DNA of 63,456 nt from an uncultured bacterium (GCA_964595945.1 CAZQSL010000005.1:1-63456), one strand, 5' to 3'. Counted from the first letter of the stretch, positions 109-63,456 are shown. The notes: generated from the letters alone by a model not told the origin. Made by a program: numbers and translations.

Positions 109-1275
109 TCAGGCTTCGCGTTGGAAAAGTCCGGCTGCGCCCATGCCGCCGCCGATGCACATGGAGACGACGCCGTATTTTTTGCCGGAGTCCTTGAGTG
201 CGTAGATGATCTGGGTGGCGAGTTTTGCGCCGGTGCAGCCGAGCGGGTGGCCGAGTGCGATGGCGCCGCCGTTGACATTGACTTTGGATGTGTCGAGGCC
301 GAGTTCGCTGACGCAGTAGATGGACTGGCAGGCGAAGGCTTCGTTGATTTCGTAGAAGTCGATGTCGTCTTTGGTGAGGCCTGCTTTTTCGAGTAGTTTC
401 GGGATGGCGAATTTGGGGCCGACGCCCATTTCATCGGGGTTGACGCCGACGGTGGTATAGGCTTTGAATACGGCGAGGGGTTTGAGGCCGAGAGCTTCGG
501 CTTTTTCGCGGCTCATGATGAGGACGGCTGCGGCGCCATCGTTCATGGGAGAGGAGTTGCCGGCGGTGGCGGAGCCGCCCTGTTTGAAGGCGGGTTTGAG
601 TTTTGCGAGGCCTTCGAGAGTGGTGTCTGGGCGGGGGCATTCGTCGGTGTCGAAGGTGACTTCTTCCCAGCCTGCGCCTTTGGGCACGCGGGCGGTGACG
701 GGGACGATTTGTTCTTTGAAGGCGCCTTTTTCGATAGCCGCGACGGCTTTCATGTGGCTGTTGTAGGCGAATTCGTCTTGAGCTTCGCGGGTGATGCCGT
801 AGCGTTCGATGACGTTTTCGGCTGTGAGGCCCATGGGGATGTATGCTTCGGGGAATTCTTCGACGAGGCGAAGGTTGATTTCGGGGGTGAAGCCGCCCAT
901 GGGGACAGCGCTCATGGATTCGGCGCCGCCGGCGATGGCGATGTCGAGTGAGCCGGAGTTGATCTTGGCGGCTGCGATGGCGATTGCTTCGAGGCCTGAG
1001 GCGCAGAACCGGTTGACGGTCATGGCTGATGTTTCGACGGGGAGGCCGGCGCACAGGGAAGCAATGCGGGCGAGGTTCATGCCCATCTGGCCTTCGGGCA
1101 TGGCGCAACCGAGGATGACATCTTCGATTTCTGTTTTGTCTATTCCGGCTCTATTGATCACTTCATTTATGACTATGGCGGCGAGATCGTCTGCTCTTGT
1201 TTCGCGAAGGGTGCCTTTTTTGGCTCTTCCCACCGCGGTTCTTGCCGCTGCAACTATTACCGCATCTCTATTCAT
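109..1275 (-). CDS. fadA: Acetyl-CoA C-acyltransferase (thiolase)
   Basis: NRFCASG (active Cys), [13 protein letters not shown] and CIGGGMG motifs; ATG 1275 behind GGAGG; follows the FadN-type gene. Confidence 0.95.
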
Positions 1276-1323
1276 GAAATCCTCCATTGGACTCAATAAA
1301 GTGTAGTTTCCGCCTCCGTGTCA

Positions 1324-10983: not shown

Positions 10984-11691
10984 TTACCCGAAAAACTTGT
11001 ATTTGATGATGCAGTAGAGCGCCTGGAATGCGTCCTTGAGGCCGATTTTTTTACCTTCTTCGTAGGTGCGGCCGGAGTAGGTGATGCCGACTTCGTAGAC
11101 GCGGCAGTGCATTTTTGCGATCTTGGCGGTGACTTCGGGTTCGAAGCCGAATCGGTTTTGCTCGATGCGGATGCCACGGATAATGTCGCCGCGGAACATC
11201 TTATAGCAGGTTTCCATGTCAGTGAGGTTGAGGTCGGTGAACATGTTGGAGAGAAGAGTGAGCATCATGTTGCCGACGGAGTGCCAGAAGTAGAGTACGC
11301 GGTGTGCGCCTTCGCCCTTGAAGCGTGAGCCGTAGACGACGTCGGCGCGGCCGTCGAGCAGCGGGAGGAGGAGCTTGGGGTATTCGAGGGGGTCGTACTC
11401 GAGGTCGGCATCCTGCACGACGACGAAGTCGCCGGTGGTGTGGGCGAATCCGGTGCGGAGGGCGGCGCCTTTGCCCTGGTTTTTTTCGTGGTAGATGACT
11501 TTGTCGACGATGGGGGTGATGTCGTCGCGGAGGATGTCGCGAGTGCCGTCGGTGGAGTAGTCGTCGACGAGGATCAGCTCAAGGTCGACGGAGGGCGGCT
11601 GGGCAGCTTTGACCCGCTGGACGATCTCGCGGATGGTTTCGCGTTCGTTGTAGATGGGGATCACTACTGAGAGTTTCTTTTTGTCACTCAT
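10984..11691 (-). CDS. GT2 glycosyltransferase (polyprenol-phosphate mannose synthase-like)
   Basis: [50 protein letters not shown]. Confidence 0.93.
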
Positions 11692-11860
11692 GGTTGGCCT
11701 TCTGTCTCCGATTGGCTCCGCGCGTTTTTTCTGCCGTCTGTCGTATGGGTGGCGGTTGGCGTTGTTGCGGCTATTTCATTTTCATACATTGATCCCGTGC
11801 GGTCAAGTGAGGGAGCCAGTGTTTGGGGGATGCAACATTTGGCTGGCGGCGGGTGTTGAA

Positions 11861-11888
11861 TTGACAAAGAGTTCCATTATTGTAGTAT
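11861..11888 (+). promoter_or_regulatory. Sigma70-type promoter of the acyl-CoA dehydrogenase gene
   Basis: TTGACA-N16-TAGTAT. Confidence 0.6.
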
Positions 11889-11923
11889 CGGGCGCGGCCC
11901 GTCATCTTGTGGAGGTGGTAGCG

Positions 11924-13789
11924 ATGTCAGAGTACAAACCGGATTTCAGGGATATTCAATTCGTATTTAACGAGTACGTCGACATAGAGGAAATCTGCGG
12001 GCTGCCGGCATTTGCCGACATGGGATATGACGCGGCGACGCTGAATGATCTGCTCGGTCAGGCCAGAAAGATCGCGGAGGAGTCTCTCTACGGGGCGCGG
12101 CGTGAGATGGACCGGGTGGGATGCAGGCTTGTGGACGGGCAGGTAGTGGTGCCGGAGTGTGCCCGCAAGCCTTATAGGGATTACTCCGAAAACGGATGGA
12201 TAGGCATAACGGGCGATCCGGATTTCGGTGGCATGGGACTGCCGGAGACGATGAATACTCTGGCGAGCGAGATGCTCGCGGGAGCCAACTGCGCACTGAT
12301 GATACTGCCCGGCCTTTCCAAGTCGGCAGCGAAGGTCATCCAGACTTTCGGCACGCTCGAACAGAAAAAAACTTTCCTCGAAAAAATGCACTCGGGCGAA
12401 TGGTCGGGCACCATGTGTCTGACAGAGCCCCACGCGGGCTCCGATGTCGGCGCGGCCAAGACGACCGCTACCCCCATCGAAGACCGCCCCGGCTGGTATA
12501 AGATAAAAGGCAACAAGCTTTTCATTTCATTCGGCGATCAGGACCTTACGGCTAATATCATCCACCTTGTGCTCGCCCGCACGCCCGGCGCGCCCAAAGG
12601 CACTAAGGGCATCAGTCTGTTCATCGTGCCGAAATACAAGCTCAACCCCGACGGCACTCCCGGCGTGTCCAACGATGTTGCGACCATCGGCATCGAGTCG
12701 AAGATGGGCATACACGGCTCGGCGTCTTGCGCTCTCAATTTCGGCGAAAACGGCGACTGCGAAGGCGAGCTTGTCGGCGAGCTCAACAACGGCATGAAAT
12801 ATATGTTTCTCATGATGAACGAAGAACGCCTGATGGTCGGCATGCAGGGGCTGTCGCAGGCGTCCGCAGCCTACATGTTCGCCAAAGCATACGCGCACGA
12901 ACGCCTTCAGGGCCCTGACATACGCAATTTCAAGGACCCGGAAGCCCCGAAAGTGCCGATCGTCACCCATCCCGATGTCCGCCGCATGCTCATGACCTGC
13001 AAGGCGTACACGGAAGGCATGCGCGCACTTGTCGCCACTGCCGCTCGCTACATCGACCTCGGCCACCATCACACCGATCCGAAAGAACGCGAAAAATACA
13101 ATGCCTGGGCCGAACTCCTCACGCCCATCTGCAAGGCGTACTGCACCGACACGGGATTTCGTGTCACGGAACTCGCCATGCAGATATATGGCGGCGCTGG
13201 CTACATTTCCACCAATCCCGTGGAGCAGTACGCGCGCGATGTCAAGATCACGTCCATCTACGAAGGCACAAACGGCATACAGGCTCTCGATCTCCTCGGC
13301 CGCAAGCTTCCGATGGGCGGCGGCGCAGTCATGATGGGGTTTTTCGCCGAAGTCAACAACCGCCTCCGCGCGCTCGCCAGCGAGCCATCCGTCTCCGCGC
13401 TCGCCCCGAAAGTCGAAAAGGCAAAAAACAGCCTGGCAGCTATCGTCATGAAATTCATGCAACTCTGGAAAGACAAAACCGGCAAGGCCGCCGTCCCATT
13501 CATCGGCGCGTGCGACATGCTCGAAATGTTCGGCGACATCCTCTGCGCACTGTTTCTCTGCGAAGAAGCGGTCATTGCCGCCAGAAAGTTCGACACTATC
13601 GCTGCGGCGGCCGGCGCTGACAATCCCGAAGCCATCGCCGCACTCGTCGCAGACAACGACGAGGCAAAATTTTACTACTCGAAATCCCGCACCGCCGAGT
13701 TTTTCGTCAACTACCTCCTGCCGCGCATCCAATGGAAAGAGTCCGCTATCCTTTCCGAAGACTTCTCGTGCATGGCCGACGTTTTCTGA
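11924..13789 (+). CDS. Long (about 620 aa) acyl-CoA dehydrogenase
   Basis: MCLTEPHAGSDVG, IKGNKLFISFG, KMGIHGSASC, GGAGY, IYEGTNGIQALDL; ATG 11924 behind GGAGGT. Confidence 0.95.
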   Translation: MSEYKPDFRDIQFVFNEYVDIEEICGLPAFADMGYDAATLNDLLGQARKIAEESLYGARREMDRVGCRLVDGQVVVPECARKPYRDYSENGWIGITGDPDFGGMGLPETMNTLASEMLAGANCALMILPGLSKSAAKVIQTFGTLEQKKTFLEKMHSGEWSGTMCLTEPHAGSDVGAAKTTATPIEDRPGWYKIKGNKLFISFGDQDLTANIIHLVLARTPGAPKGTKGISLFIVPKYKLNPDGTPGVSNDVATIGIESKMGIHGSASCALNFGENGDCEGELVGELNNGMKYMFLMMNEERLMVGMQGLSQASAAYMFAKAYAHERLQGPDIRNFKDPEAPKVPIVTHPDVRRMLMTCKAYTEGMRALVATAARYIDLGHHHTDPKEREKYNAWAELLTPICKAYCTDTGFRVTELAMQIYGGAGYISTNPVEQYARDVKITSIYEGTNGIQALDLLGRKLPMGGGAVMMGFFAEVNNRLRALASEPSVSALAPKVEKAKNSLAAIVMKFMQLWKDKTGKAAVPFIGACDMLEMFGDILCALFLCEEAVIAARKFDTIAAAAGADNPEAIAALVADNDEAKFYYSKSRTAEFFVNYLLPRIQWKESAILSEDFSCMADVF

Positions 13790-40682: not shown

Positions 40683-41408
40683 TCAGTCGATAATGTTCGA
40701 TTTCTTGAGGAAATCGGTGAGGCTTTCGGGGGTGGAAACAGAGCGGAGCCGGGCACGGGGGATGCCGTTGCGGTCGATGACGACATTGGTGGGAGGGTTG
40801 GAGATGTTGTAGATGCGCATGGTTTCCATTTCCTTGTCGACATTGAGACGATAGACGTCGATGAGTCCCGAGGACTGTTTCTGGACGGATTCGAGCACTG
40901 GCATCTGCTCAAGGCAGGGGTTGCACCAGTCGGCGTAAAATTCGAGGATAGTGACCGCTCCGCGTCGCGAATTGCCTGAGATGCGCTTCGTGACGGCCGT
41001 CTGCCTGAAAGGTTTGCGGTCGGCTGTGAATTTTTTGACATTGGATGGGCCGGCGGCGACTTCGACGATGCCAAGTCCCTTGTGGATGTGGATGACAGAT
41101 GGCACGAAGGCGATTTCATAGAGCATGGCGGCGCCCTTGCCGCCGTGCGACTCGACGTCGGCACTGACAAATCCCGCTGACTCCTTGCCCGCGAGTGCCC
41201 TGATGCGTGATTCTGCCTTTTTGGATTCGGGGTAGTCCTTTGAATAGAAGTAGAGATAAACATCGTCATTGGACTTCATCGCGTCGATGACCGAGGCATT
41301 GAATTTCTTAAGTGAAGAATCGTCGATCTCGGACACGGCAACGGCACGCAACGCGACCGCCGCAAGTGCCACAAGAAGAGTTATGGCCGCGAAAGTTCGT
41401 CTGTTCAT
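40683..41408 (-). CDS. Exported tandem thioredoxin-fold protein
   Basis: Signal peptide; first fold lacks CxxC (YFYSKDYPES); second fold FYADWCNPC. Confidence 0.8.
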   Translation of the reverse strand: MNRRTFAAITLLVALAAVALRAVAVSEIDDSSLKKFNASVIDAMKSNDDVYLYFYSKDYPESKKAESRIRALAGKESAGFVSADVESHGGKGAAMLYEIAFVPSVIHIHKGLGIVEVAAGPSNVKKFTADRKPFRQTAVTKRISGNSRRGAVTILEFYADWCNPCLEQMPVLESVQKQSSGLIDVYRLNVDKEMETMRIYNISNPPTNVVIDRNGIPRARLRSVSTPESLTDFLKKSNIID

Positions 41409-41661
41409 TACTATAGTGCTCCGTTCGGATGGCTCCCTATCCGCCATGTGGTAAATACTGGCGAAAGCCACCGGCATTTGTAGTGTAACCATATATGTAT
41501 ATTTTGACAAAGGAAAATACACCAGGTGCGAAAAAAATGACAAATCCTTTGCCGGAGGGCGGGATAATATAGTGTCCGGTCACAAAACCGGATGCCCTGG
41601 CCGGCCATGTGCGCGGCTGCGGCACAAATATATGCAAAATTTGACCGCGGAGGAAACGAAA

Positions 41662-43224: not shown

Positions 43225-45189
43225 ATGAATAAACAGACTCCGGTTGCGATCAAGACGATACTTCTCATCGTCGCTATCGCCGGTTTTGTGTCTTCAGGTT
43301 ATGTGCTGTACAGGCGCGCCGGCTATGAAATGGCATCAAAAACGGTGCGGATTGTAATGGATTCGCGCTCCATAGCCGCCGCGCAGCCGCCGGGCATGTC
43401 TAACGAAGACGCGCTTGCCGAATTCAGAAAACTCGGCATCGACACGGTCGGCGTCTATGAGTATTCGGCTAAAAAGCTCGTACGCGGGCGCACTCTCGGC
43501 ATGTACGAAAGCCCCGCGATATATGGCGGAAAATCACGGCCGGGCATGTTGCTCAAAGGCGATGCCATCTATGAAATCCCCGCGATGAATGATATGCTCA
43601 GCGCATATTTCGGGACAAAGCCTTGTTACATGAATGAAAAAGCCGGCTGGCGCGAATGCAATATCCCCGCCATCGGTTCCGACCAGCTCGAAAAGCTGTC
43701 ATTCGGACTCGAACCCGTGCCGTCTGCCATGAAAGCAGCTCCCCGACTCTACAATACCCCATTCGAGACGAAAGAATCCATCGCTCTCAAGATCGCGCAG
43801 GCCGCGGACGCAAACGCTGCCGGCATTATCATTTTTGACGGCGACGCGGTACTCGGCTATCCCAATCTGACCGGCGTGACGGCAGAAGAAGTGCTGAAAC
43901 ACGACAATCTACTCGTCGGCTATCTCGAACTATCGGGCCAGGATGGCGAAAAGCCTCTGGCATCGAAGTTGCGTGACCGGATCGTCGAGGTGCATGGCAT
44001 ACCCGAAGAGGAAATGGCTGTCACGCCTCCAGCGAAAGCTGTCGCGCGATTTCGCCGCGCGGTGCGTGAGCGTGGCATCAGAGTGCTTTATGTGAGACTT
44101 TACCCGGCTCTCGGCGGATTGCAGCCGCAGGAGTCATTCGCCAAAAATGTCGAATATGTGAAATCAATCAAGGAAGCGATTGAAAATGACGGTTACACAC
44201 TTGGACAGGTGAAGCCGCTGCCGCCATTCGAGACCGATGTTAAGATCAGAGTCGCGCGCGCCATGACGGTGGCCGGAGCGGTGGCGCTCGTGGCGCTGCT
44301 GCTGGCGCTGACAGGTGTCAGCCTGCCGGTGTGGCTGATCGCGGCGGGGCTGGCCGGAGGGCTTGGCGCTCCGATGGCGCTGGCCACGGGAGGCAGTCTG
44401 TCGGTAATGGTCTTCAAGCTTGCGGGGCTTGCGGTGGCGTGTTTGGTGCCCGCACTCGCAGTAGTCGTTTTTTTCCTGCCCGAAGACCGGAAATATGACG
44501 GGTCAGGCCTGATTTTCAAAAACAACGCCGTCGCTTTCGTCGCTGCTACAGCCATAACGATGGCTGGCGGCATGATGTTGGCCGCGATGATTTCCGAACG
44601 TGTATTTTTCCTCAGGATAGCTGTCTTCTCGGGCGTCAAGCTGGCATTTGTCATGCCACTCGCGATCATCGCACTGTACTATCTCAGCCGCACGAAAGAG
44701 GGTGCGCTCGAATTTCTCTCGTCGAATGTCAGATATGTCGAAATAGTGGCCGGAGTGCTTGCGGTCGCCGCCCTTGCCATCTATATCATGAGGTCGGGCA
44801 ACAACAGTCCGGCTGAGGCGAGCGCGGTGGAGTCTGCACTGAGGCTGAAACTCGAAGACATATTCATCGCGCGGCCGCGGACCAAGGAATTTCTGATCGG
44901 ACATCCGGCGCTGTTGCTCGCGGGCCTGTTCCCCTTTGCCAAAAAGCGTTATACGGTGCTGCTCGTGCTGCTTGCGGGCGTGATCGGACAGATCAGCGTG
45001 ATGAACACCTTTTGCCACGCGCATACGCCGATCATGCTGACGTGGTTCCGTGTTTCGCTCGGAGTACTGCTCGGTCTGGCGGTGGGGACTGGGCTGCGGC
45101 TTGTGCTCGCTCCGGTACTGTTCCTGATTTCGGCGGACGGCTGGTCATGGTATCCTCAGAAGGACAGCCGTGACCGAAGAGAATCATAG
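43225..45189 (+). CDS. DUF5693-like membrane protein (usually csaB-associated)
   Basis: RERGIRVLYVR, FSGVKL, RPRTKEFLIGHP, NTFCHAHTP motifs recalled from this family; multi-TM C-half. Confidence 0.75.
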   Translation: MNKQTPVAIKTILLIVAIAGFVSSGYVLYRRAGYEMASKTVRIVMDSRSIAAAQPPGMSNEDALAEFRKLGIDTVGVYEYSAKKLVRGRTLGMYESPAIYGGKSRPGMLLKGDAIYEIPAMNDMLSAYFGTKPCYMNEKAGWRECNIPAIGSDQLEKLSFGLEPVPSAMKAAPRLYNTPFETKESIALKIAQAADANAAGIIIFDGDAVLGYPNLTGVTAEEVLKHDNLLVGYLELSGQDGEKPLASKLRDRIVEVHGIPEEEMAVTPPAKAVARFRRAVRERGIRVLYVRLYPALGGLQPQESFAKNVEYVKSIKEAIENDGYTLGQVKPLPPFETDVKIRVARAMTVAGAVALVALLLALTGVSLPVWLIAAGLAGGLGAPMALATGGSLSVMVFKLAGLAVACLVPALAVVVFFLPEDRKYDGSGLIFKNNAVAFVAATAITMAGGMMLAAMISERVFFLRIAVFSGVKLAFVMPLAIIALYYLSRTKEGALEFLSSNVRYVEIVAGVLAVAALAIYIMRSGNNSPAEASAVESALRLKLEDIFIARPRTKEFLIGHPALLLAGLFPFAKKRYTVLLVLLAGVIGQISVMNTFCHAHTPIMLTWFRVSLGVLLGLAVGTGLRLVLAPVLFLISADGWSWYPQKDSRDRRES

Positions 45190-45981: not shown

Positions 45982-47625
45982 ATGGATACACTTGCGATAT
46001 TGACAGCGGCAGCGGCAGCAGTGTCGGCAATGCTGGCTGTAGTGGCATTGGGACACGGGATGAGGCGCCGGGGCGCCGGGACACCCCTTATAGTGGCCGG
46101 AGCGATAATACTTGCCGGAGCAGGCTGGATATGTCTCGGAGGGCTGCCCGGCGGCGCTGGAGTAGCGTCACTCTTCGCGGTGGCATGCTGGACGCTCGGC
46201 TATGTCATCACCTCGCGCGGCACGTGGGTGTTTCCATCGGTCGGAATAGGTGCGCTGTTTGTTTTTGTGACGACAGCGGCAGTACTTGTGCTCGATCCCG
46301 TCCTGCCTCGCGACTCCGCATCGGGATGGATTGTCAATACGCTCGGCATCTGCGTCTCTGCGGCGGCCATCGCAGCAGCCGTGGCGCGCAAAGGCCCTGG
46401 ACGTCACTATTTTATGCAGGCGGCTGTTTTCATGCTCCTGCATTACCTTGCCCCAGTCGCCGAATACACATTGGCGATACAGGCCCTACCCGTGTGGGCA
46501 TCGCCTCTCGCGATGGTCATCGCCATCGCTTCGATGTTTTACTATCAGGACGCCATCAGCCTGCATGACCCGAGAGAAGACTCGGTGACGGTTGTCGACA
46601 AGGCATTCTGTTACGATGTCGCGTCGGCAGCCCTCAAAAAGCTCGAACAGGTCGGCGGGGCGACCGGCGCGGATTTCGAAAACTATGCCCGGGCATTTGC
46701 GGAAACGCTCATCGACGGAGGCTGGTACACGAGGATTTTCCTCGGCCGCGAAGACAAGCCGCGCGGACGCTGCCTTTTTACGGATGAATTTCTCGCGCCA
46801 CCAGAAGACGACACAAGTTCGTACGGCGTGATCACAACGTTCAGCCTGCCGAGCGCGGTATGCCTCGAAGCATTTGAAAACGGCAGGTCGCTGCTGGTGG
46901 AGTCCTCGGCCTCGGCGACGGTGAAGGCTGCCTTTTCGCGCATCGGCATCGAAGCGGCCATCATCGTGCCGCTCCCGGATATAGAGGCCGGAGCCGCCAT
47001 GCTGCTCATTGGCATGAGGGGCGACGATCTTGTGCCGGATGTCAACGATGCGCTCAGGCTCGACGGCGTCGCGTCGCATCTCGCGGCCTATCGCCCGAAG
47101 CAGACGCTCGCCACGGAGTCCGACGCCCCTGCTTCCCCGGGTTCGGTCGATACCGTGACCGGCGTCCGCAGCTTCACCGCTTTTCAGCAGATACTTGGTG
47201 AAGAAATGATGGAAGCCGACAAAAACGGCACAGCCTTCGGGCTCCTGTTTGTCGATTTTGATCACTATTCGGACGTCAACCGGCGCGTCGGCTATGACCA
47301 GGCCGATAAAATACTGCGTGATGTAGCCGTCAAACTCAGTTCTTATGCCATGAAAGGCTGCGTAGGCCGCATAGGTTCGGACGAACTCGCCGCCCTGCTC
47401 AAAACCGGCGCGGATGACGCCCGCCAACTCGTAGAAACCATCGTCAGCGAAATGAACGAATCTCTGAAAAACGAATATCCCGAAGCGGTGGCTACAATGT
47501 CCGCCGCCTATACGATATATCCGATCGACTTCTGCGAACAGACGGCGGTATTCGGTAAACTGCGCGAAATGCTCAGTTCGGGCGATCCCATGCCGGGACA
47601 CATTGTCAGGGTCAAGGTCGGATAG
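45982..47625 (+). CDS. Membrane protein with GAF-like and degenerate GGDEF domains
   Basis: About 6 TMs; DTVTGV, LLFVDFD, RIGSDEL in place of RxGGDEF. Confidence 0.75.
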   Translation: MDTLAILTAAAAAVSAMLAVVALGHGMRRRGAGTPLIVAGAIILAGAGWICLGGLPGGAGVASLFAVACWTLGYVITSRGTWVFPSVGIGALFVFVTTAAVLVLDPVLPRDSASGWIVNTLGICVSAAAIAAAVARKGPGRHYFMQAAVFMLLHYLAPVAEYTLAIQALPVWASPLAMVIAIASMFYYQDAISLHDPREDSVTVVDKAFCYDVASAALKKLEQVGGATGADFENYARAFAETLIDGGWYTRIFLGREDKPRGRCLFTDEFLAPPEDDTSSYGVITTFSLPSAVCLEAFENGRSLLVESSASATVKAAFSRIGIEAAIIVPLPDIEAGAAMLLIGMRGDDLVPDVNDALRLDGVASHLAAYRPKQTLATESDAPASPGSVDTVTGVRSFTAFQQILGEEMMEADKNGTAFGLLFVDFDHYSDVNRRVGYDQADKILRDVAVKLSSYAMKGCVGRIGSDELAALLKTGADDARQLVETIVSEMNESLKNEYPEAVATMSAAYTIYPIDFCEQTAVFGKLREMLSSGDPMPGHIVRVKVG

Positions 47626-47656
47626 ATGCCGGTATATTCTCCGGCAGGTAACAATA

Positions 47657-48925
47657 ATGACTAATATTTTATACATCGACTGCTTCTCAGGCATCAGTGG
47701 CGATATGTTCCTCGCTGCCATGTTCGACCTCGGGCTTCCTTTCGATCAGTGGAAATCTGAAATCGGCAGGCTCAGGCTGCCTGACGGGGTCGATTTCCAT
47801 GTAGATTCCGTCGTCCGAAAAGGCATTTCCGCCAAGACTTTCACCGTCACCGAACCTGTCCATCATCCCCACGGCCACCATGCCCATACTCACGGGCATG
47901 AGCATCGACACAATCATGATCACGAACACGCCCCCCGGCATGGGCGCCGCCTCGCCGACATGCTCGCAATGCTCGACGGCATTTCACCTTCCGCTAAATC
48001 AAAAACCGCAAAAGCCCTCACCCGCATCGCCACAGTCGAGGCGGCCATACACGGCAAACCCGTCGATGAGGTGCATTTCCATGAACTCAGCGGCATAGAC
48101 ACGATCGTCGATGTAGCCGGCGCGTTCATCGCGCTCGATATCATGGGATTTGACAAGGTCATCTGCGCGCCCGTGAATGTCGGCACCGGCACAGTCGAAT
48201 GCGCGCACGGGATCATGCCCGTGCCTGCTCCTGCTACGGCCGCGTTGCTCGCCGGCTGTCCCGTCTATGCGCAGTTCGACGGCGAGATGACGACTCCTAC
48301 AGGCGCTCTGATAGTGACCGAGACAGCTTGTTCCTTCGGCCCCATGCCCGGGATGAATATCGTCACGATCGGATATGGCGCGGGCGGACGGGAGTGCGCC
48401 CATGCCAATGTACTGAGGCTCTTTTCCGGCACCGACGGAGCAAAAGCCTCCAACGATCTCCCGGACAGCGTGTACATCGCATCCGCAAACATCGACGACA
48501 TGGACCCGCGCGTGTGCGGCTATCTGATGGAACGCCTCTTCAGGGGCGGCGCGCTCGATGTATTCATCCAGCCGGTACAGATGAAGAAAAACAGGCCGGG
48601 GATCACTTTCAGCGTGATGTGCGACGCGGCGTTTCTCCCGGTTGCAGTAGATATGCTGATGAAGGAAACACCGACGCTCGGTGTGCGCGTCAACGAATGC
48701 GCGAGGTATTGCGCGGAACGAAAGATCGAAGTGATCGAAACGACACTTGGCCCGCTGCGTGTTAAAATCGCCGAATGGGAAGGCAAGGTACTCCGCGTAT
48801 CGCCGGAATTCGACGACTGCGCGCGCCTCGCGAGGCGCGCGGGTATCCCCGTAGCGGATATCGTGAAAATACTCACCGCTGAGGCGGAGTCCGCTTGCAT
48901 GTCTCGCGGCGACGGGACAAAATGA
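47657..48925 (+). CDS. larC: Nickel pincer cofactor biosynthesis protein LarC
   Basis: DCFSGISGDM, His-rich linker, VHFHELSGIDTIVD, PVPAPAT, TTPTG, ANIDDM, MKKNRPG, TLGVR, PEFDDC. Confidence 0.95.
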   Translation: MTNILYIDCFSGISGDMFLAAMFDLGLPFDQWKSEIGRLRLPDGVDFHVDSVVRKGISAKTFTVTEPVHHPHGHHAHTHGHEHRHNHDHEHAPRHGRRLADMLAMLDGISPSAKSKTAKALTRIATVEAAIHGKPVDEVHFHELSGIDTIVDVAGAFIALDIMGFDKVICAPVNVGTGTVECAHGIMPVPAPATAALLAGCPVYAQFDGEMTTPTGALIVTETACSFGPMPGMNIVTIGYGAGGRECAHANVLRLFSGTDGAKASNDLPDSVYIASANIDDMDPRVCGYLMERLFRGGALDVFIQPVQMKKNRPGITFSVMCDAAFLPVAVDMLMKETPTLGVRVNECARYCAERKIEVIETTLGPLRVKIAEWEGKVLRVSPEFDDCARLARRAGIPVADIVKILTAEAESACMSRGDGTK

Positions 48926-54511: not shown

Positions 54512-55960
54512 ATGAAATTTCGCAAAAGATTACGACTATTGTTTATCGGTCTTGCGGTACTGACGAATGGGCTGCTGATGCTGATAATGTATTTGTTCAT
54601 GAAAAATTCGATGTTCGCTATGATACAGAGTCAGGTAATGTCGATCGCGGCGGCTGCGGCAGTGAATCTGGATGCCGGCCTGCACGTCGAGGCAGTGAAA
54701 AACGGGCAGGAATCGGAAGAGTACGAAAAAATCTATGCGCAATTGGGAAAGATACGAAACGCTAACAGGCGCGACGATGTCTATGTGAGGTTTATCTACA
54801 CACTTGTGCCGGGCAGTGATGTGGGCAAGAAGGAAAAATTCGTGTTTGCCGTCGATGCCGAAGAGGAAAACACCGGCGATCAATCGAAACTTGGCGACGT
54901 GTTCTCCAATAGCAACCCGAAGGTAAAAATAGACAAGCCATACGTGTCGGACAAGTACGATGTGGACAAGTGGGGCGTGTGGCTGACTGCGTACTATCCC
55001 CTGAGGGACGCGCAAGGAAGGCCAGTCGCGCTGCTTGGGGTTGACGTGAGGGCGTCCGATGTGCAGAAGAAACTCGATGCGGTCCTGTACACCGGTCTCG
55101 GGTGCCTTGCGCTGAGCGTGCTGATCGCGCTCATCGTGGCTATCCGCATGGCCAACCGCGTGTCCGATCCGCTCGAAAAGATCAAGGATGCGGTCGTGAG
55201 GATAGGCAGGGGGGAATTCGGGGTCAACGTGGATATCCACACAAAGGACGAATTCGGGCAGGTCGCCGATGCGATCAATGAAATGACTCGCGGGCTCAAG
55301 GAACGCGAACTGCTCAAGACATCGCTTGCCAACTATGTCTCCGCGGAAGTGGCCAACAGCATCCTTTCGTCCGGTGCGCTCCCCACCATCACGGGCAGCC
55401 GCTGCAAGATAACTGTCCTGTTTTCTGACATAAGGAATTTTACGACACTTTCCGAGTCGCGCGAACCCGAAGAGGTCGTGGCGCTGCTCAATGAGTATTT
55501 CGAGCGCATGATCGACATAATATTCCGCCACCAGGGCATGCTCGATAAATTTATCGGCGATGGCATACTCTGCATCTTCGGCGCTCCGATCGACGATCCG
55601 CAGCAGGAACTCCATGCCGTACAGGCAGCGTTTGAGATGCAGGAGGCCGTCATCAAGCTGCGAGACAAGTGGGGGATCGAAAAATCCATCGACTTTCGCG
55701 TCGGCATCGGCATCCATACCGGGCCTGCAATCGTGGGCAACATCGGCTCGTCCGAACGCATGGAATACACGGCGATCGGTGACACGGTCAATCTCGCGTC
55801 GAGACTCGAGTCGGCTTCGAAAGACCTCAAGGCAAGCATCGTCATCAGTGACACCACGTATGAGGCGGTCAGTGACAAGTACTGTTTCGAAGAGGGTGGC
55901 TCGATCACTGTCAAGGGCAGAAATGCTCCGGTCAAGGTATACGCGGTCAATAGAAAATGA
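54512..55960 (+). CDS. Class III adenylate cyclase (TM, sensor domain, TM, HAMP, catalytic domain)
   Basis: VLFSDIRNFT, LDKFIGDG, YTAIGDTVNLASRLE; Lys and Asp specificity residues indicate ATP. Confidence 0.93.
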   Translation: MKFRKRLRLLFIGLAVLTNGLLMLIMYLFMKNSMFAMIQSQVMSIAAAAAVNLDAGLHVEAVKNGQESEEYEKIYAQLGKIRNANRRDDVYVRFIYTLVPGSDVGKKEKFVFAVDAEEENTGDQSKLGDVFSNSNPKVKIDKPYVSDKYDVDKWGVWLTAYYPLRDAQGRPVALLGVDVRASDVQKKLDAVLYTGLGCLALSVLIALIVAIRMANRVSDPLEKIKDAVVRIGRGEFGVNVDIHTKDEFGQVADAINEMTRGLKERELLKTSLANYVSAEVANSILSSGALPTITGSRCKITVLFSDIRNFTTLSESREPEEVVALLNEYFERMIDIIFRHQGMLDKFIGDGILCIFGAPIDDPQQELHAVQAAFEMQEAVIKLRDKWGIEKSIDFRVGIGIHTGPAIVGNIGSSERMEYTAIGDTVNLASRLESASKDLKASIVISDTTYEAVSDKYCFEEGGSITVKGRNAPVKVYAVNRK

Positions 55961-56404
55961 GACCTCGCCGGGTTTGCATGCTCTGTATCAGCAGGCGCAT
56001 AGCTGCCAGTAGACAGACATAGCTGACATGGGTTGTCCATGTCGCCTTGAACATTCCCGCCAGTGCGCAGCAGCACCGGGCGGGGTAGGGCGGGGGCGGT
56101 ATGGGGTCCCGTGCGGGTTTGTTTTTCACCTGAAAATGGCTTGCCGGTAATTAAGCGCTCCGTTTTTCGTGATGCTGGCCATTAGCCGGCTGAGGTGCCT
56201 GCCGCGGAGAATTGTATAAGTGTGCGACAGGGTAAAACCCGCTGTGGCGATACGGAATTATGTGAAAAACATTTATCTTGTCATATCATTGGTAACGTGA
56301 GATAATCTAAACAGAAGACTTGTAAGTAAATGCCGGGCCATTAACCCCATCGCGTCTGCGATGAGTGGGAAGAATACGGAAACCGATTTCCGGAGGAGGC
56401 AGAA

Positions 56405-57226
56405 ATACTTCCACAATTTGATACTTATCCGCCTCTTTATTTCGGGTTTATCGGGCTGTTTGTAGGGAGTTTCCTCAATGTATGCGTGTGGAGGCTGCCC
56501 CGGGGAGAATCGATAGCTTGGCCCGGGTCGCACTGTCCGGCCTGCGGCAGCAGGCTCAGCGCAATGGAGCTTATCCCACTGGCGAGCTGGCTGTATCAGA
56601 AGCGAAGATGCAGGGCATGCGCCGCGAAGATATCGGGAAGATACCCGGCGGTGGAGATCGTGACCGGAATCGCATTTTACTATGCGTCAGTCAGCGCTGA
56701 CGGAACATTTTTGGTTTTTCTGCAAAAAGCGCTTCTGTTTTCAGGACTGATCATAGTTTTTCTGGTCGATATGGATCACATGATAATACCGGATGTGGTG
56801 ATCCTGCCGCTTGCGGTGACGGGGATGGTGATATCGGCGGCGGGTACGGTGATGCCGGGGCTGGAAGGCGTGCCGGACTGGAAAGACGCGCTGGTCACGG
56901 CAGGGATAGGGTTCGGAGTGTTTCTCGCCATAAAAGTGGGAGGCACACTGGTGGCGGGCAGAGAGGCGATGGGATTCGGAGATGTCAAATTTGCCGCGAT
57001 GCTCGGGGTTTTTCTGGGGAGGGACCTTTTTCTGGCGGGGATGTTCCTCGCTTTTCTGATCGGAGCTCTTGTTGCGATACCGCTGCTGCTCCTGAGGGGA
57101 AGGGGGATGAGAGAAAATGTGCCGTTCGGTCCCATGATGGTGGCTGGCGCGGTGGTGGCTCTCGTCGGGGGGCAGCAGTTGATCGACTGGTATGGAAGAT
57201 GGATGGGCAGATTATGGTTATATTGA
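56405..57226 (+). CDS. pilD: Prepilin peptidase / N-methyltransferase; start probably upstream of the GTG at 56486
   Basis: GSFLNVC, SHCPACG, CRAC, RYPAVE, DHMIIPD, MGFGDVK, VPFGP; the conserved GSFLNV is encoded upstream of the first GTG; in-frame ATA at 56405 behind GGAGGAGG. Confidence 0.9.
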   Translation: MLPQFDTYPPLYFGFIGLFVGSFLNVCVWRLPRGESIAWPGSHCPACGSRLSAMELIPLASWLYQKRRCRACAAKISGRYPAVEIVTGIAFYYASVSADGTFLVFLQKALLFSGLIIVFLVDMDHMIIPDVVILPLAVTGMVISAAGTVMPGLEGVPDWKDALVTAGIGFGVFLAIKVGGTLVAGREAMGFGDVKFAAMLGVFLGRDLFLAGMFLAFLIGALVAIPLLLLRGRGMRENVPFGPMMVAGAVVALVGGQQLIDWYGRWMGRLWLY

Positions 57227-57299: not shown

Positions 57300-57983
57300 A
57301 TGAACATTTTTAAATTGAGTGAAAAACCGAAGAACCTGATTTCGATCCGTCGGGGAGATGGCGAAAAGGGGTTCACTTTTGTCGAAGTGATGATAGCCAT
57401 GACTATCCTTGTGTCCGTGATGATAGGGATAGCGATGTCGCTGAACACGGCCATGGCGCAACTGAAGGAACTGCGGGTCAAGCGAACCGCGAACGATTGC
57501 GGCAGGGCGATCATGGAATATCTGTCTACACTGCCGCCGGATGTGGTGTATGCGGCATCGCCGGGGACTCCCATCGTGGGCGACTTCAGCACCGGCGGCA
57601 TCCTGCAACTCAAGCAGTTCGTATACGGCTCGGAGCTGGACAATATCCCGACGGCATGTATGGAAATGTCAAATCCGGCCAGCGTAGTCGGCAAACGGGT
57701 GAATATGAAATATAGTATATGCCCCGGATGCAATGCCTATACCGAAGAAGACACTACCGGCGGCGCCAACGATTATCATACGTGCAAATATACAATAAAA
57801 GTGCGGATCGAATACAACGGTTTGCACCTTGCTCGGAGTGTGGACAAACCGCACAAAATTGACTTTATGAAACAATTGTACGAAGGAAAGGCATATCCGT
57901 GTGTCGACACGGCCGGGATAGGCGTGTCGGTATGTGGGATAGGTTCGGACAACCCGGACACACCCAAAATGTGCTATTTCTAA
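57300..57983 (+). CDS. PilV-like minor pilin
   Basis: KG|FTFVEVMIAMTIL class III signal with Glu5; 8 Cys. Confidence 0.85.
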   Translation: MNIFKLSEKPKNLISIRRGDGEKGFTFVEVMIAMTILVSVMIGIAMSLNTAMAQLKELRVKRTANDCGRAIMEYLSTLPPDVVYAASPGTPIVGDFSTGGILQLKQFVYGSELDNIPTACMEMSNPASVVGKRVNMKYSICPGCNAYTEEDTTGGANDYHTCKYTIKVRIEYNGLHLARSVDKPHKIDFMKQLYEGKAYPCVDTAGIGVSVCGIGSDNPDTPKMCYF

Positions 57984-58006: not shown

Positions 58007-58864
58007 ATGGATGGTATAAACAATAAAAGATATGTCCGCTCACAGGCCGGATATTCGCTCGTAGAGCTCATGGTTGTGTTGTGGCTCATAGTGATAATCA
58101 CGATAGCGATTTCGCACTTGCTCACCAACACGGCCAAAATAGTCACCGATGTCTCAAGAGAAAATTTCGCCCAGAGCAGAGTCGAACAGATAGTCTCCCA
58201 GATAGCCGACGACTTCAGGTCGGCGGGGTCGGATGATTTCCGCCATATCAGCGATGGCTCGACCTCTATTTATTTCCACTTTGTGCGATACATGCAGAAC
58301 ATGGATGCCTACGCTCCAGGCAATGCGGACACGGCATACGATCTCGCCTGTTACAGATTTGTGCCTCCTTCGGACGCAAATAACCCTTTTGCCGCCAATT
58401 ATGTCCCCGGCTACATCGAAACCGGGACAACCCCCGGGGCCGGGACATCATGCGACAGCCTGACACAGGGCATGTACAAACTCACCGACAACTATACGGA
58501 TATCCGCAAATTTGAAGTGCAGTTCTGCCAGCCGGGGGCATCGGCCGGCACCTTCGACTGCTTCAACTCCATCGACAATGCGACGATCGACGATACTCCG
58601 CCAATCTACTCTCACACGGCCATGTGTGTCTGGATCGTGAAAATCAATGTGGAATACGCGAGAATCACGCCAAAAACCGGAAACTCGATGGCGCCCGACC
58701 GCTACGAAAAACTGACATCGAGGTATTCGACGGCAGTCAAGCTCCGCAATCCCTATTCCATGTCACTCTTTATCGACGAAGACAAAGACGGAATAGTCGA
58801 CTGCTGCGACGCGACATACGGAATGGCAGGCGGCACATGGTGTCCCGCGCCAGTCAGTCAATAA
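58007..58864 (+). CDS. PilW-like minor pilin
   Basis: AG|YSLVELMVVLWL with Glu5; QIADDFRSAG helix; VKLRN near the C-terminus; 8 Cys. Confidence 0.85.
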   Translation: MDGINNKRYVRSQAGYSLVELMVVLWLIVIITIAISHLLTNTAKIVTDVSRENFAQSRVEQIVSQIADDFRSAGSDDFRHISDGSTSIYFHFVRYMQNMDAYAPGNADTAYDLACYRFVPPSDANNPFAANYVPGYIETGTTPGAGTSCDSLTQGMYKLTDNYTDIRKFEVQFCQPGASAGTFDCFNSIDNATIDDTPPIYSHTAMCVWIVKINVEYARITPKTGNSMAPDRYEKLTSRYSTAVKLRNPYSMSLFIDEDKDGIVDCCDATYGMAGGTWCPAPVSQ

Positions 58865-58898: not shown

Positions 58899-61800
58899 AT
58901 GTTCAACAAACTGAAACAAATGATGAATGACCGCAGGGAAGGCGGCTCGATCATTGTCCTTTCGATAATGACACTCGCCATTATGTCGATGATAGGAGCC
59001 TCGTTCAGCATGATGGTGTCGAGCGAAGCCCGGTCGGTCACATCGGACTGGCTCGCGCAGCAGGCCCTTTATGCGGCCGAATCGGGGATTCAGGACGTCC
59101 TGTACCAGCGCTCCAAAAAACCCGCCCAGACATGTTTCCCCTTCTTTTACAAAGACCCTGAAATCGACGAAAAAGATACCGATACATATTCTACAGTCGG
59201 TAGTGTCAACACCGCCCTCAAGACATCGAGCGACGAAAAAGTCGTACTGCTCACCGGCGCCAGCGCAGGCATGAACGCCGATGGTGCCCCGGCCGGCAAT
59301 CCGTCCACCGACATGGACGAAGCCGGCGCCCCCGGCACGGACAAAATGGCCTGCGGCATCTATCAGCTATCAACCGACGCGCAGAGCCGCGCGGAATATC
59401 TGCCCTGCTGGCCATACAACGAAAGGCTGTACGAAAACTCGATCCAGTGGGGGCCCGACTTTCACTGCCATGACGGCTCCACCAATCCGGATTGCTCGAC
59501 ATCAGAGGAAGGCGGCGGCTGCACGGACGCCAACGACGTTTCCAACAGAGACTGCTACTCCCCGCTTTTCTGGTGGCCGGCATCTCCCGATGGCGCCCAC
59601 ATCGGATGGAAAGACGTCTATGACCGCACCGAAGACGGCACCGATATCGAACTGCCGCTCACCAGCGCCTCGGCCGGCACTGGCGCACGCTACACGACGG
59701 GTTTCTTCACCCTGTGCAACGATGACTTTTCAGGCATAGAAGCATCTATGGTCGGCTATGACAACGCCTGCACCGACGCACAGAGCGGACAGCCATGTGA
59801 CAGATACGTGACACGGCTCACGGTCGTGTCGGTAGGCGAAGTGCAAAACGGCAGCCAGGTGGTGCGCCGCGCCGTCAAGATCGACATGCAGCCGCCCGCC
59901 CTCTTCACCGGCGTTATCGACCAGTATGTCAACACCGATTTCTGGGGCGTCTCCAACATCAACGGCCCGCTCCACATTAATGGACTCAGAAACGACGGCA
60001 AATGGTATTCATTCCTCAATCTCCTCGGCGGCACGGTCGGCGCGCTTTTCGACGCGCCTGACCTCGTCAGCGTCAGCTATCCCGAAGACCCGGCCAATCC
60101 CGACTGGCAGCCAACTGTCGCGGGATTTTCGATAACTCACAAAATAACTTACGTCCATATCCCGTTCCGACTCGATCTTCCCGCCGTCAACTGGGACAAA
60201 TGGGAAGACCAGATGGCGGACCTTTACACCCAGGCTCTCGCCGAGTACAACACGACAAACGTCTATCCTCTCAAACGATGCGAATTCACCCATCCCGTGA
60301 CCTCCACTGCCAAAGACTGCGGCAGCAGCGACGGCGTCGACCACTACACTCTCAATCTCGGCACCACCGACCAGGACCGCGACGCAGCGTTTCCGGCGTT
60401 CATGTCGATGACCAAACGCTACAACACCGGCGTTGATAAAATTCACAACTTCCAGCGCTACAATTCGGACGCGCAGCAGTGGGGCGCATCAACAGCCCAT
60501 GTATTCGATCTCTTCGACCACTGGGAAGAGTATCCCTACACATGGGTCGAAGGCACGGAACCCCCGGTCATCAATGGCGGCACTGGCCCGAGGGACAGAT
60601 CGCTCCGGCCCAAAGTATCGTTCATGCTTAATCCCAACCTCGGCCTCGGCTGCCTCACGTGCGTCATCGGCGATCTCTCCATCGCCGGATTTATGTCCTG
60701 CTGCGTCGGCAAGGAGGAAAACAGACCCGAATTCGTATTCATGGGAAAACACGAATTCCGCGACTTCGTCTTCATCGACGGCATCATCGGCATCGGACAG
60801 CGAGCCCCGTGGCACACCTGCGGCGACGGCGACGGCGGACTGGGGGTGTACTGCATTGTCATTCCCAACCTCTGCCTGCTGTCATTCGGTGGATCATGCG
60901 TAATCGAAATACCGGGATTTTCATTCGGACTGCCGCACTGGCATACGGGCGCAGCTATAGTCACGGGCGAAATGCTCGTCAACGGACGCCTGCACATGGC
61001 GGACTACATACACATAGACGGCGGTACAATCTATGCCGATGGACACATAATAAAGGATGAGTCCAGCGCCTACGACATCACCATCAACCTCCAGGACCTC
61101 CTCTGCTGGCTCCTCGGTCCCATCACCACCATGACGATATCCATCCCCATATTCGGCGATCTGAGCATCAATCTCTGCGACATCATATTCGCCATCGCCG
61201 GCCCCATCATAAGCGCCATGGTCCCCTGGTGGCCAGAGATCAACCTGACCAACAGCGAACTTCTCGATTTCGAGACATACCTCGACATCGACGGCATAGG
61301 CCCATCGTACTCAAGCGGCATCATCAACCCAGGCACTCTGTACACACACGGCGACTTCCGCCTCATGACCCCCGGGTGGGACGCGACATCATTCATCGCC
61401 AACACCATCATAGGGTTACTGATACCATGGCTGAAGCTCGAATCCTCGGTCGACCCGATACGAATATACAACGGAGGCGCCATAGTCGCAGGCGGCACCA
61501 CCAGCGGCAATACGTTCCTGCACGGCAATATATATCTCGACAAACACAAGAGAGCCGACCTCCTTACATACAACCCCGAAACCGATGAAAACGACACCGG
61601 ATACGTCATAGCCCGCGGAGCCGTCAGCATCTGGAGCGACATCATCTCCCACTACGGCATGCTCGGACTGACAAACGGATGCTCGACCACTGTATTCTCA
61701 GGCGGAGGTCTCGACGAAGACTGCGCCGCAAACGGAATCTTCTACTCCGGCGGCTACGCAGCAGGAGCGACCAACAAATTTACCGCCTTCGGGCGCAGCA

Positions 61801-62132
61801 CATTATCAGTAGACCAGCCCGAAGGAAGCCTCGACAAAACCCTCGCCTCTGCGTGCGAACCCCTCCTCACGGGCAATATCATGACTGCCCCATGCTGGCT
61901 CACTGCCGTCACCGACCTGCTCACACCAGGCAACACCAACGAATACAATATCCGCGGCCACCTCTTCGCCGGAGCGGTCGGCGCAATGGCAGGCACTCAC
62001 ATCAGACTCGACCAGGACACATCAGTCAGAAACGAAGCCGTAAAACGCCAGTACTACAAGCAGCTCAGCGGCACTCCCATCAACTGGCAGGAAATCGAAC
62101 CCCCTGCCAACCTGCCACACCTCGAAGACTGA
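58899..62132 (+). CDS. Giant PilX-like minor pilin / adhesin (1077 aa)
   Basis: EGG|SIIVL without Glu5; QALYAAESGI PilX motif; LTVVSVGEV...RRAVKI strands; repeated solenoid-like motifs; terminal INWQEI; 26 Cys. Confidence 0.85.
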   Translation: MFNKLKQMMNDRREGGSIIVLSIMTLAIMSMIGASFSMMVSSEARSVTSDWLAQQALYAAESGIQDVLYQRSKKPAQTCFPFFYKDPEIDEKDTDTYSTVGSVNTALKTSSDEKVVLLTGASAGMNADGAPAGNPSTDMDEAGAPGTDKMACGIYQLSTDAQSRAEYLPCWPYNERLYENSIQWGPDFHCHDGSTNPDCSTSEEGGGCTDANDVSNRDCYSPLFWWPASPDGAHIGWKDVYDRTEDGTDIELPLTSASAGTGARYTTGFFTLCNDDFSGIEASMVGYDNACTDAQSGQPCDRYVTRLTVVSVGEVQNGSQVVRRAVKIDMQPPALFTGVIDQYVNTDFWGVSNINGPLHINGLRNDGKWYSFLNLLGGTVGALFDAPDLVSVSYPEDPANPDWQPTVAGFSITHKITYVHIPFRLDLPAVNWDKWEDQMADLYTQALAEYNTTNVYPLKRCEFTHPVTSTAKDCGSSDGVDHYTLNLGTTDQDRDAAFPAFMSMTKRYNTGVDKIHNFQRYNSDAQQWGASTAHVFDLFDHWEEYPYTWVEGTEPPVINGGTGPRDRSLRPKVSFMLNPNLGLGCLTCVIGDLSIAGFMSCCVGKEENRPEFVFMGKHEFRDFVFIDGIIGIGQRAPWHTCGDGDGGLGVYCIVIPNLCLLSFGGSCVIEIPGFSFGLPHWHTGAAIVTGEMLVNGRLHMADYIHIDGGTIYADGHIIKDESSAYDITINLQDLLCWLLGPITTMTISIPIFGDLSINLCDIIFAIAGPIISAMVPWWPEINLTNSELLDFETYLDIDGIGPSYSSGIINPGTLYTHGDFRLMTPGWDATSFIANTIIGLLIPWLKLESSVDPIRIYNGGAIVAGGTTSGNTFLHGNIYLDKHKRADLLTYNPETDENDTGYVIARGAVSIWSDIISHYGMLGLTNGCSTTVFSGGGLDEDCAANGIFYSGGYAAGATNKFTAFGRSTLSVDQPEGSLDKTLASACEPLLTGNIMTAPCWLTAVTDLLTPGNTNEYNIRGHLFAGAVGAMAGTHIRLDQDTSVRNEAVKRQYYKQLSGTPINWQEIEPPANLPHLED

Positions 62133-62463: not shown

Positions 62464-62718
62464 TTGCAATAATCCCTCACACCCACTACAATACTCTTCG
62501 CCTGACAGAAACAAAGGGCACTGAGAAACTTGAAACCATAGACACCGAGCGGCTGACAAAACAAGCCGTCACGGAATCCCCGAAAAAAAAAGCTTTCCGA
62601 AAAGCTTGCAAATAAACTCAGGCACGCTATAATATAAAACGCTCTGAGAAACGAAGCTGAACGGAAAAAGAAAACTTTCGCGGAGTGGTTGACAAAAGAT
62701 AACACGACATAGTAAAAT
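62464..62718 (+). promoter_or_regulatory. Tandem sigma70 promoters of the rRNA operon
   Basis: TTGCAA-N17-TACAAT (62464-62492), TTGCAA-N16-TATAAT (62606-62633), TTGACA-N18-TAAAAT (62689-62718); A-tracts precede the last two. Confidence 0.75.

Positions 62719-62893: not shown

Positions 62894-63456
<563 letters not shown>

Follow-up and report, generated by a model that had tools for sequence, protein, structure and literature searches.

Type IV pilus tips determine what cells stick to, sense or take up, and the tip modules known so far are few: the PilY1 propeller, the solenoids of ComZ and of cyanobacterial PilX, and vWA or lectin modules. Here we ask what a pilin of more than a thousand residues might do on such a filament. 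The protein in question, giant PilX, is encoded at 58899-62132 (plus strand) in a 63,456-nucleotide stretch of DNA from an uncultured bacterium (GCA_964595945.1, CAZQSL010000005.1:1-63456), which is referred to as a whole as the window. A preliminary description, made from the DNA alone, had proposed a pilus tip that inserts into membranes, lipid droplets or prey or host cells. The reading that we favour, and hold to be rather probable, is that giant PilX, in an uncultured diderm of a candidate phylum, is the Glu5-less subunit that caps the distal end of the priming (tip) complex in a type IVa pilus, and that its own body, of the size of PilY1, serves there as plug or adhesin.

Giant PilX is a minor pilin without Glu5

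The gene and its parts are as follows, in window coordinates:

58899..62132, plus strand: giant PilX-class minor pilin, whole gene, 1077 aa (open reading frame, ORF; 21 full-length homologues at 37-51% identity)
58899..59117, plus strand: residues 1-73, leader, G16 and hydrophobic helix alpha1 (PilX_N match, apparent free energy of membrane insertion or dGapp, alignment, predicted helix 2-73; boundary at 59118)
59118..59567, plus strand: residues 74-223, acidic length-variable region (alignment, low-confidence modelling)
59568..59948, plus strand: residues 224-350, candidate pilin sheet (alignment; AlphaFold2 predicted local distance difference test, pLDDT, 67-84)
59949..62129, plus strand: residues 351-1077, orphan body with six embedded hydrophobic inserts (AlphaFold2; mapping of rungs and inserts; relatives not found)

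The preliminary description had confined the feature to 59950-62132, an interval that lies inside this ORF but takes in only residues 351-1077 and omits the first third of the gene. The peptides that it quoted were found, 14 out of 14, at their exact residue numbers in the ORF product. Its naming of the protein as a giant PilX also held, given a PilX_N match above the Pfam cut-off, the lack of Glu5 and the minor-pilin cassette. PilX_N (PF14341) is the sole Pfam match of the product (residues 16-64, 27.4 bits against a curated cut-off of 25.5). The N-terminus is a class-III signal, with a short charged leader, a Gly at -1 and then the hydrophobic alpha1. G16, where a Gly is expected at -1 of the prepilin-peptidase site, is kept in at least 90% of the aligned sequences. 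Residues 18-36 form the only 19-residue stretch of the protein with a negative dGapp (-1.03 kcal/mol). Mature position +5 is Val or Leu in 21 of 21 aligned sequences. Since an N-terminus that lacks Glu5 and combines a conserved Gly with a hydrophobic helix is the signature of the capping PilX/GspK class, giant PilX belongs to this class, and its operon context is that of minor pilins. It is the last gene of a cassette that begins with a prepilin peptidase and continues with two Glu5 pilins:

56486..57226, plus strand: prepilin (type IV leader) peptidase, first gene of the cassette (Pfam A24_N_bact, 4.7e-24; Peptidase_A24, 1.1e-16)
57300..57983, plus strand: minor pilin 1, 227 aa, prepilin motif G|FTFVE with Glu5 (Pfam N_methyl, 4.6e-06; TIGR02532)
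58007..58864, plus strand: minor pilin 2, 285 aa from the ATG at 58007, a start inferred from sequence; prepilin motif G|YSLVE with Glu5 (N_methyl match)

The product is acidic, as had been said before (pI 4.5; 129 Asp and Glu against 64 Lys and Arg; net charge ~-65), and contains 26 Cys, 24 Trp and 25 His. Behind alpha1, residues 74-223 hold four invariant Cys (79, 170, 190 and 199) and were modelled with low confidence; this region measures 141 aa in the window protein, within a range of 73-141 aa among homologues. Lineage-specific insertions, for example TYSTVGSVNTALKTSSDEKVV and MDEAGAPGTDKMACGIYQLSTD, were seen in its poorly conserved acidic stretch, where both structure models are of low confidence. 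Residues 224-350 contain three long conserved beta strands (263-273, 304-317 and 320-330) and the motif RLSIVSVGEVQ...VRRAVKVD, and may represent the pilin-fold sheet.

The body is a narrow orphan family in a conserved cassette

A word-indexed search of 5.8 billion proteins returned the 21 homologues, ~950-1090 aa each and all from metagenomes or from metagenome-assembled genomes (MAGs) of an uncultured 'bacterium'; a second such search, made with the family profile, brought back 22 proteins, none of them new. When 1.84 billion cluster representatives were searched exhaustively with the profile, 214 matched, only 13 of them with E <=1e-30 (eight near-full-length representatives, among them the distant members P0024 and P0025 at ~1e-115, plus fragments); these two were the only members added. 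As more than 190 of the 214 matches are limited to the N-terminal PilX part (profile positions 1-125), the body, put at ~950 aa, is a narrow orphan family of ~25 sequences, all from uncultured MAGs. It has no Pfam relative, and a search of NCBIfam found 0 families at E <=1. Metagenomes commonly contain large PilX_N proteins whose bodies are unannotated or are FG-GAP propellers. Genome records that bear the family include bacterium UBP15_UBA6099 and ADurb.Bin236, and their NCBI class is unclassified or candidate-phylum Bacteria; one relative is labelled UBP15. A literature search on this lineage (UBP15, UBA6099) turned up only papers on yeast or plant Ubp15 and one incidental mention.

We found the order peptidase, ~200-aa pilin, ~280-aa pilin and giant PilX in every related locus with enough flanking sequence. 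The peptidase orthologue lies directly 5' of the pilins in all loci, and the orthologues of minor pilins 1 and 2 take the same positions throughout. In the related loci L001/L002 and L018, the cassette is flanked on one side by genes for a PilT-sized T2SSE ATPase, T2SSF (PilC) and major-pilin-like proteins, and on the other by PilM, PilN, PilO, an unannotated gene (284 aa) and a secretin of ~1000 aa. In L017 (9642-18879), it is followed by genes for the flagellar rod, FlgA, the L-ring (FlgH), the P-ring (FlgI), FlgK and flagellin. FlgH and FlgI beside the cassette point to a diderm envelope, and the gene content of L017 implies a lineage that would be both diderm and flagellated. The PilY1/PilC Pfam family was absent from every locus table.

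Giant PilX occurs as tandem copies, ~81% identical, in 6 of 12 genome loci (L003, L006, L007, L008, L010/L011 and L013), and L001/L002 repeat the UBA6099-type tandem pair; the window has one copy. Tandem duplication is usual for tip adhesins. Two of the pairs are located as follows:

L001/L002, 6541-13255: tandem giant PilX pair
L003, 10001-16078: tandem giant PilX pair

The body is rich in disulfides and its predicted core is compatible with an irregular solenoid

Giant PilX is an extracytoplasmic, disulfide-rich protein. Of the 21 homologues, 19 have an even total of Cys, and those Cys that vary co-occur pairwise (461/474, 485/493, 506/518, 588/601 and 659/670). From these even counts and the paired gain and loss we infer about 13 disulfides in the window protein. 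Additional pairs are invariant or near-invariant in the alignment (C585/C602, C641/C652, C736/C760, C928/C942 and C986/C999). The Cys content of the family is 2.6%, compared to 0.9% in a comparison set of 20 other PilX_N proteins of >=450 aa. Overall, the pattern looks like that of an extracytoplasmic protein with all its Cys in disulfides.

The AlphaFold2 model of the full-length protein reached a pLDDT of 54.9 and a predicted template modelling score (pTM) of 0.58. For residues 224-1077, a model based on 25 sequences, P0024 and P0025 among them, gave a pLDDT of 70.9 and a pTM of 0.73, with 510 residues at >=70. The predicted secondary structure runs from three long strands (263-330) through the body to conserved C-terminal strands (1014-1066), an order compatible with a pilin fold that a solenoid interrupts. 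The segments that had been read as solenoid rungs proved to be conserved: all of them are predicted as beta strands (pLDDT 78-94) and are gap-free in the alignment, with a majority-residue fraction of 0.74-0.93, but they are not detectable as repeats of each other. The model contains runs of strands of 3-6 residues (pLDDT 78-94); six strands of 3-5 residues, for example, are predicted within 845-880, a run of short strands that would be typical of a solenoid and not of a meander. The modelled core of the body is compatible with an irregular beta-solenoid. Helices are predicted at 581-602, 731-743, 759-774, 829-841 and 997-1008 (pLDDT 65-82), while hairpins or coil of low confidence (pLDDT 39-55) make up 369-384, 647-679 and the central part of insert 4 (744-758).

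Hydrophobic inserts and the question of lipid contact

The six inserts of the body, together with two invariant motifs next to the third, are located as follows:

60003..60050, plus strand: insert 1, aa 369-384 (13-24 aa in homologues; no Cys bracket; pLDDT 39-52)
60639..60704, plus strand: insert 2, aa 581-602 (C585/C602 bracket with inner, co-occurring C588/C601; predicted helical hairpin)
60807..60944, plus strand: PYHTCG (aa 637-642), insert 3 (aa 647-679) and PHWH (aa 679-682), both motifs invariant
61089..61235, plus strand: insert 4, aa 731-779 (two predicted hydrophobic helices, 731-743 and 759-774, pLDDT 67-82, with a variable hairpin between them)
61392..61433, plus strand: insert 5, aa 832-845 (conserved helix, no Cys)
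61851..61910, plus strand: insert 6, aa 985-1004 (invariant C986/C999 bracket; weakly hydrophobic family-wide, mean Kyte-Doolittle (KD) value 0.15)

That strongly hydrophobic inserts interrupt the core was borne out. The KD mean over 19 residues exceeds 1.4 at four internal stretches (580-604, 645-676, 733-778 and 829-847), and strongly hydrophobic internal 19-mers number 1.78 per 1000 aa in the family against 0.24 in the comparison set, an enrichment of ~7-fold. With the exception of insert 6, the inserts are hydrophobic in every homologue (mean KD 1.0-1.6), even though their length ranges among homologues (13-24, 13-27, 19-40 and 15-31 residues) and their sequence vary. Insert 2 is cut to 13 aa in the distant subgroup. 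Insert 3 spans 19-40 aa; its C652 is invariant and C659 co-occurs with a Cys at alignment column 670. In insert 4, each helix holds one invariant Cys (C736 and C760), and an invariant WWP closes the insert. The claim that the loops are bracketed by Cys applies to four of the six inserts, through C585/C602, C736/C760, C986/C999 and C641/C652, the last of these flanking the start of 647-679; it fails for 369-384 and 832-845. A hypervariability of the loops, for which a homologue alignment had been put forward as a check, was not found: between tandem paralogues, inserts 3, 4 and 6 are 0.54-0.88 identical compared to 0.88-1.00 in neighbouring rungs, and are thus only somewhat more divergent.

The best internal 19-mers have dGapp values of +2.7 to +5.2 kcal/mol compared to -1.0 for alpha1 and are not of transmembrane (TM) grade; the scale values used are reportedly those of Hessa et al. 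2005. True TM helices were ruled out for the inserts by dGapp and by their Pro, Gly and Asp content. The insert helices show moderate amphipathicity (Eisenberg mean hydrophobicity 0.48-0.72, hydrophobic moment 0.25-0.39).

In line with the preliminary description, the pilus tip could serve to anchor in membranes or lipid, or even to form pores, its stapled hydrophobic loops clustering on one face or at the distal end and inserting in a lipid phase. Inserts in a buried core would not be expected to stay hydrophobic in all homologues despite varying length and sequence, a pattern typically shown by functional loops that are exposed, and their enrichment relative to other large PilX_N proteins as well as the low pLDDT of the variable parts (39-55) point in the same direction. 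Judged by sample names, the relatives come from hydrocarbon-degrading and other anoxic communities. The lack of any insert of TM grade, the Pro, Gly and Asp within inserts that are moreover cross-linked, and the modelling of the conserved inserts as helices (pLDDT 65-82), the form to be expected of elements that pack against one face of the solenoid, argue against insertion; ComZ likewise buries its hydrophobic loops (PMC6561018). Searches of Pfam and Foldseek searches of PDB and BFVD showed no similarity to pore-forming or fusion proteins, and a literature search on membrane-inserting pilus tips gave no precedent. We regard such a tip as unlikely. The lipid phase that it would enter could be the membrane of a target cell, a vesicle derived from an outer membrane, or a droplet of lipid or hydrocarbon.

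The preliminary description had linked the lipophilic loops to an organism rich in beta-oxidation genes. Such genes are present in the window (109-3813, minus strand; 11654-13789, plus strand) and encode a thiolase, an 829-aa fusion of 3-hydroxyacyl-CoA dehydrogenase with enoyl-CoA hydratase, and an acyl-CoA dehydrogenase that is long (711 aa), which would be in favour of lipid insertion. However, they lie 45-58 kb from the pilus genes, and the link is one of co-location within 63 kb. Genes of fatty-acid metabolism do not recur beside the cassette, as an acyl-CoA dehydrogenase gene lies near it in L018 only, and a functional tie was rejected on this ground.

One form of the idea is that the variable hairpins (369-384, 647-679 and 744-758), together with the hydrophobic helices, make up an exposed distal apolar patch that partitions into lipid, hydrocarbon or the membrane of another cell. 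We give this a small chance. If true, the retractile type IV pilus would work like a harpoon, aimed at droplets of oil or lipid, at vesicles, or at cells that are prey or partners. To our knowledge, no pilus tip acts as a harpoon for lipids or hydrocarbons.

Invariant residues and a possible tip-borne activity

Six His (H359, H420, H618, H639, H680 and H682) are conserved without exception in 25 sequences whose identity goes down to 28%, and fall partly in the motifs PYHTCG and PHWH. D537, D627, E691, D702 and D887 are invariant as well, as is a KDESSGxD motif (719-726). This conservation suggests that the His, Asp and Glu residues may form a metal-binding or catalytic site. Accordingly worded as a function, the tip would bear an enzyme or metal centre, with the invariant site on the solenoid as in lyase or hydrolase beta-helices, and the pilus would deliver an activity beyond adhesion. 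Beta-solenoids are indeed often hydrolytic enzymes (PMC6561018). Nevertheless, no enzyme family of Pfam or NCBIfam matches, no pectate-lyase-like or tailspike fold was matched in PDB or BFVD, and the giant PilX sequence has neither a CxxCH nor an HExxH motif. The invariant His are equally explicable as structural, for example through a stabilising metal like the Ca site of GspK or PilY1. We consider a tip-borne activity improbable. A cupin-type HxH motif near PHWH, picked out by eye, was discarded as its spacing to Glu and Gly does not fit.

Comparison with known pilus tip subunits

ComZ of Thermus thermophilus, rightly named as a comparator in the preliminary description, is the top-ranked PDB fold match for both models, though a non-significant one (6QVI; E = 0.24-0.35, TM-score <=0.20). 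It is a GspK-like pilin with a ~380-residue beta-solenoid inserted before its last strand, and hydrophobic side chains of a helix and of long loops are buried against the solenoid; it binds DNA and was argued from its structure to fit only at the pilus tip (PMC6561018). Giant PilX shares with it the Glu5-less GspK-like N-terminus, a large beta-rich body and a gene beside that of a partner minor pilin. It differs in the size of the body (~1000 aa against the ~380-aa solenoid, put at about twice as large), in its 26 Cys with ~13 inferred disulfides, in its strongly hydrophobic inserts and in its strongly acidic charge. Homology in sequence is not detectable; phmmer and hmmsearch searches against all PDB chains found no ComZ and nothing relevant. 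BioA-type PDB matches (E = 0.06 or worse) were dismissed as noise. A ComZ-like DNA receptor, that is, a competence-pilus tip that binds extracellular DNA and is pulled in by PilT-driven retraction, shares this layout and this top-ranked match and has a PilT-sized ATPase gene next to the cassette in relatives, but is quite unlikely given the non-significance of the fold matches, the lack of sequence or profile similarity to ComZ or any other PDB chain, a net charge of ~-65 and the absence of comEA, comEC and dprA from all locus tables.

In cyanobacteria, a 2026 preprint reports, all PilX homologues carry such a solenoid, which interrupts the PilX pilin fold, and the PilX-EPS/HpsA subfamily has very extensive solenoids and undefined domains; the solenoid was proposed to substitute for the PilY1 plug and adhesin in organisms without PilY1 (bioRxiv 10.64898/2026.02.12.705559). 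The loci related to giant PilX resemble this situation in that none has a PilY1 gene. They differ in belonging to another phylum and in showing no link of the giant PilX locus to polysaccharide secretion. The NCBIfam library that gave no match at E <=1 contains Hps-family models such as HpsB, and relatives of the body were found by profile search only among the ~25 MAG proteins.

GspK and PilX of type II secretion systems and proteobacterial type IVa pili (tip of GspI-J-K or FimU-PilVWX) are, like giant PilX, the Glu5-less last subunit encoded by the last gene of a minor-pilin operon, with an extra domain inserted in the pilin fold and a Pfam PilX_N match. Proteobacterial PilX and GspK proteins have about 170-330 aa. 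Giant PilX has 1077 aa and two accompanying Glu5 minor pilins instead of three. PilY1/PilC of Pseudomonas, Neisseria and Myxococcus compare to it in size (~1000 aa), in the presumed function as tip plug and adhesin and in the frequent duplication of paralogues. In contrast to giant PilX, in which an adhesin-sized body is fused to a pilin, PilY1 is a non-pilin with a C-terminal beta-propeller, and giant PilX has no Pfam match to Neisseria_PilC (beta-propeller) at E <=1. Streptococcus sanguinis PilB is a modular pilin with a vWA module grafted on it for adhesion (bioRxiv 10.1101/2021.01.27.428410). It is alike in concept, as a pilin that bears a bulky functional module on the filament, but its vWA module is of known fold and binding chemistry and its host is a monoderm.

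Together, these comparisons qualify the earlier view of giant PilX as an undescribed system. The body is an orphan family, whereas the layout of a pilin plus a large solenoid at the tip has already been described for ComZ and cyanobacterial PilX/HpsA. What is new is the body itself, with its size, disulfide load, six invariant His and hydrophobic inserts.

A proposed role at the pilus tip

According to the capping-subunit reading that we favour, the adjacent peptidase would cleave giant PilX, which would then act jointly with both minor pilins to seed the assembly of the pilus, in the manner of the GspI-J-K complex, and leave through the secretin, riding on the pilus tip. There, the irregular solenoid-like body, stapled by its ~13 putative disulfides, would take the role of PilY1 as tip plug and adhesin. 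The conserved hydrophobic helices (583-603, 731-743, 759-774 and 829-841) would mainly pack on the solenoid or on partner subunits, while the hydrophobic hairpins of variable length (369-384, 647-679 and 744-758) would provide an exposed greasy contact surface. This division into structural helices and exposed hairpins is suggested by pLDDT and conservation. As for the ligand, a hydrophobic or apolar surface would be the simplest guess.

Several observations weigh against this proposal. Inserts that vary in length and yet are uniformly hydrophobic are unusual for buried elements, and a pure adhesin role leaves the six invariant His unexplained. The rung segments are not sequence repeats of each other, as every pair among seven segments stayed below 10% probability in hhalign; the solenoid, if real, is irregular. 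Foldseek gave no match at E <=0.001, neither for the full-length model against PDB nor for residues 224-1077 against PDB and BFVD. In addition, every organism with a member of the family is uncultured. Finally, the cassette in the window does not adjoin PilMNOPQ but is followed by a 16S rRNA gene (62894-63456, plus strand; 5' 578 model positions, 555 bits), which runs past the window end. This rRNA gene probably explains both the end of the contig and the absence of a following PilMNOPQ here.

The giant PilX family adds a very large tip body without detectable relatives, in a candidate phylum with neither a cultured member nor a described surface biology. With exposed inserts, it would be the first tip of a pilus to be specialised for apolar targets; with buried ones, it would still be a useful test case for how far the replacement of PilY1 by a pilin plus solenoid reaches beyond Thermus and cyanobacteria. 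Its value is limited because genetic tests are impossible in the organisms that bear giant PilX.

Start of the peptidase gene and other genes in the window

In frame with the peptidase ORF, the first TM segment of its product (YFGFIGLFVGSFLNVC) is encoded at 56441-56485, upstream of the first canonical start (GTG 56486), and is conserved when the upstream in-frame translation is compared to the N-termini of homologues. No ATG, GTG or TTG occurs between the preceding stop, which ends at 56344, and 56486. The true start thus probably lies upstream of 56486, as judged from the reading frame, and either the gene starts at a non-canonical codon, such as the ATA at 56405, or its product is truncated at the N-terminus. 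In L017, the peptidase gene as called has the same truncated start. A sigma-70-like site at 56278-56306, 5' of the peptidase gene, weakly suggests that peptidase, the two pilins and giant PilX are transcribed as a four-gene operon. Further promoter-like sites were seen at 62606-62718, between giant PilX and the 16S rRNA gene. Among ~40 larger ORFs scanned in the rest of the window, none encodes pilus machinery.

Immediately 5' of the cassette lies a gene for a membrane sensor of the adenylate/guanylate cyclase type (54512-55960, plus strand), with a Cache-like region, HAMP and Guanylate_cyc (7e-32). Signalling by cAMP is tied to type IV pili in other bacteria. A functional tie to the cassette was rejected here, as the cyclase is not conserved beside it in other loci.

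At 40683-41543 (minus strand), a 286-aa protein with a long N-terminal extension and a C-terminal thioredoxin domain is encoded. Its domain makeup would suit a thiol-disulfide oxidoreductase that acts outside the cytoplasm, an activity of interest for an exported protein with 26 Cys. The window additionally encodes a full-length DUF5693 protein (3.5e-118; 43225-45189, plus strand) and a LarC-type nickel-insertion protein (6e-128; 47603-48925, plus strand), and between these two genes lies one for a degenerate GGDEF protein (45982-47625).

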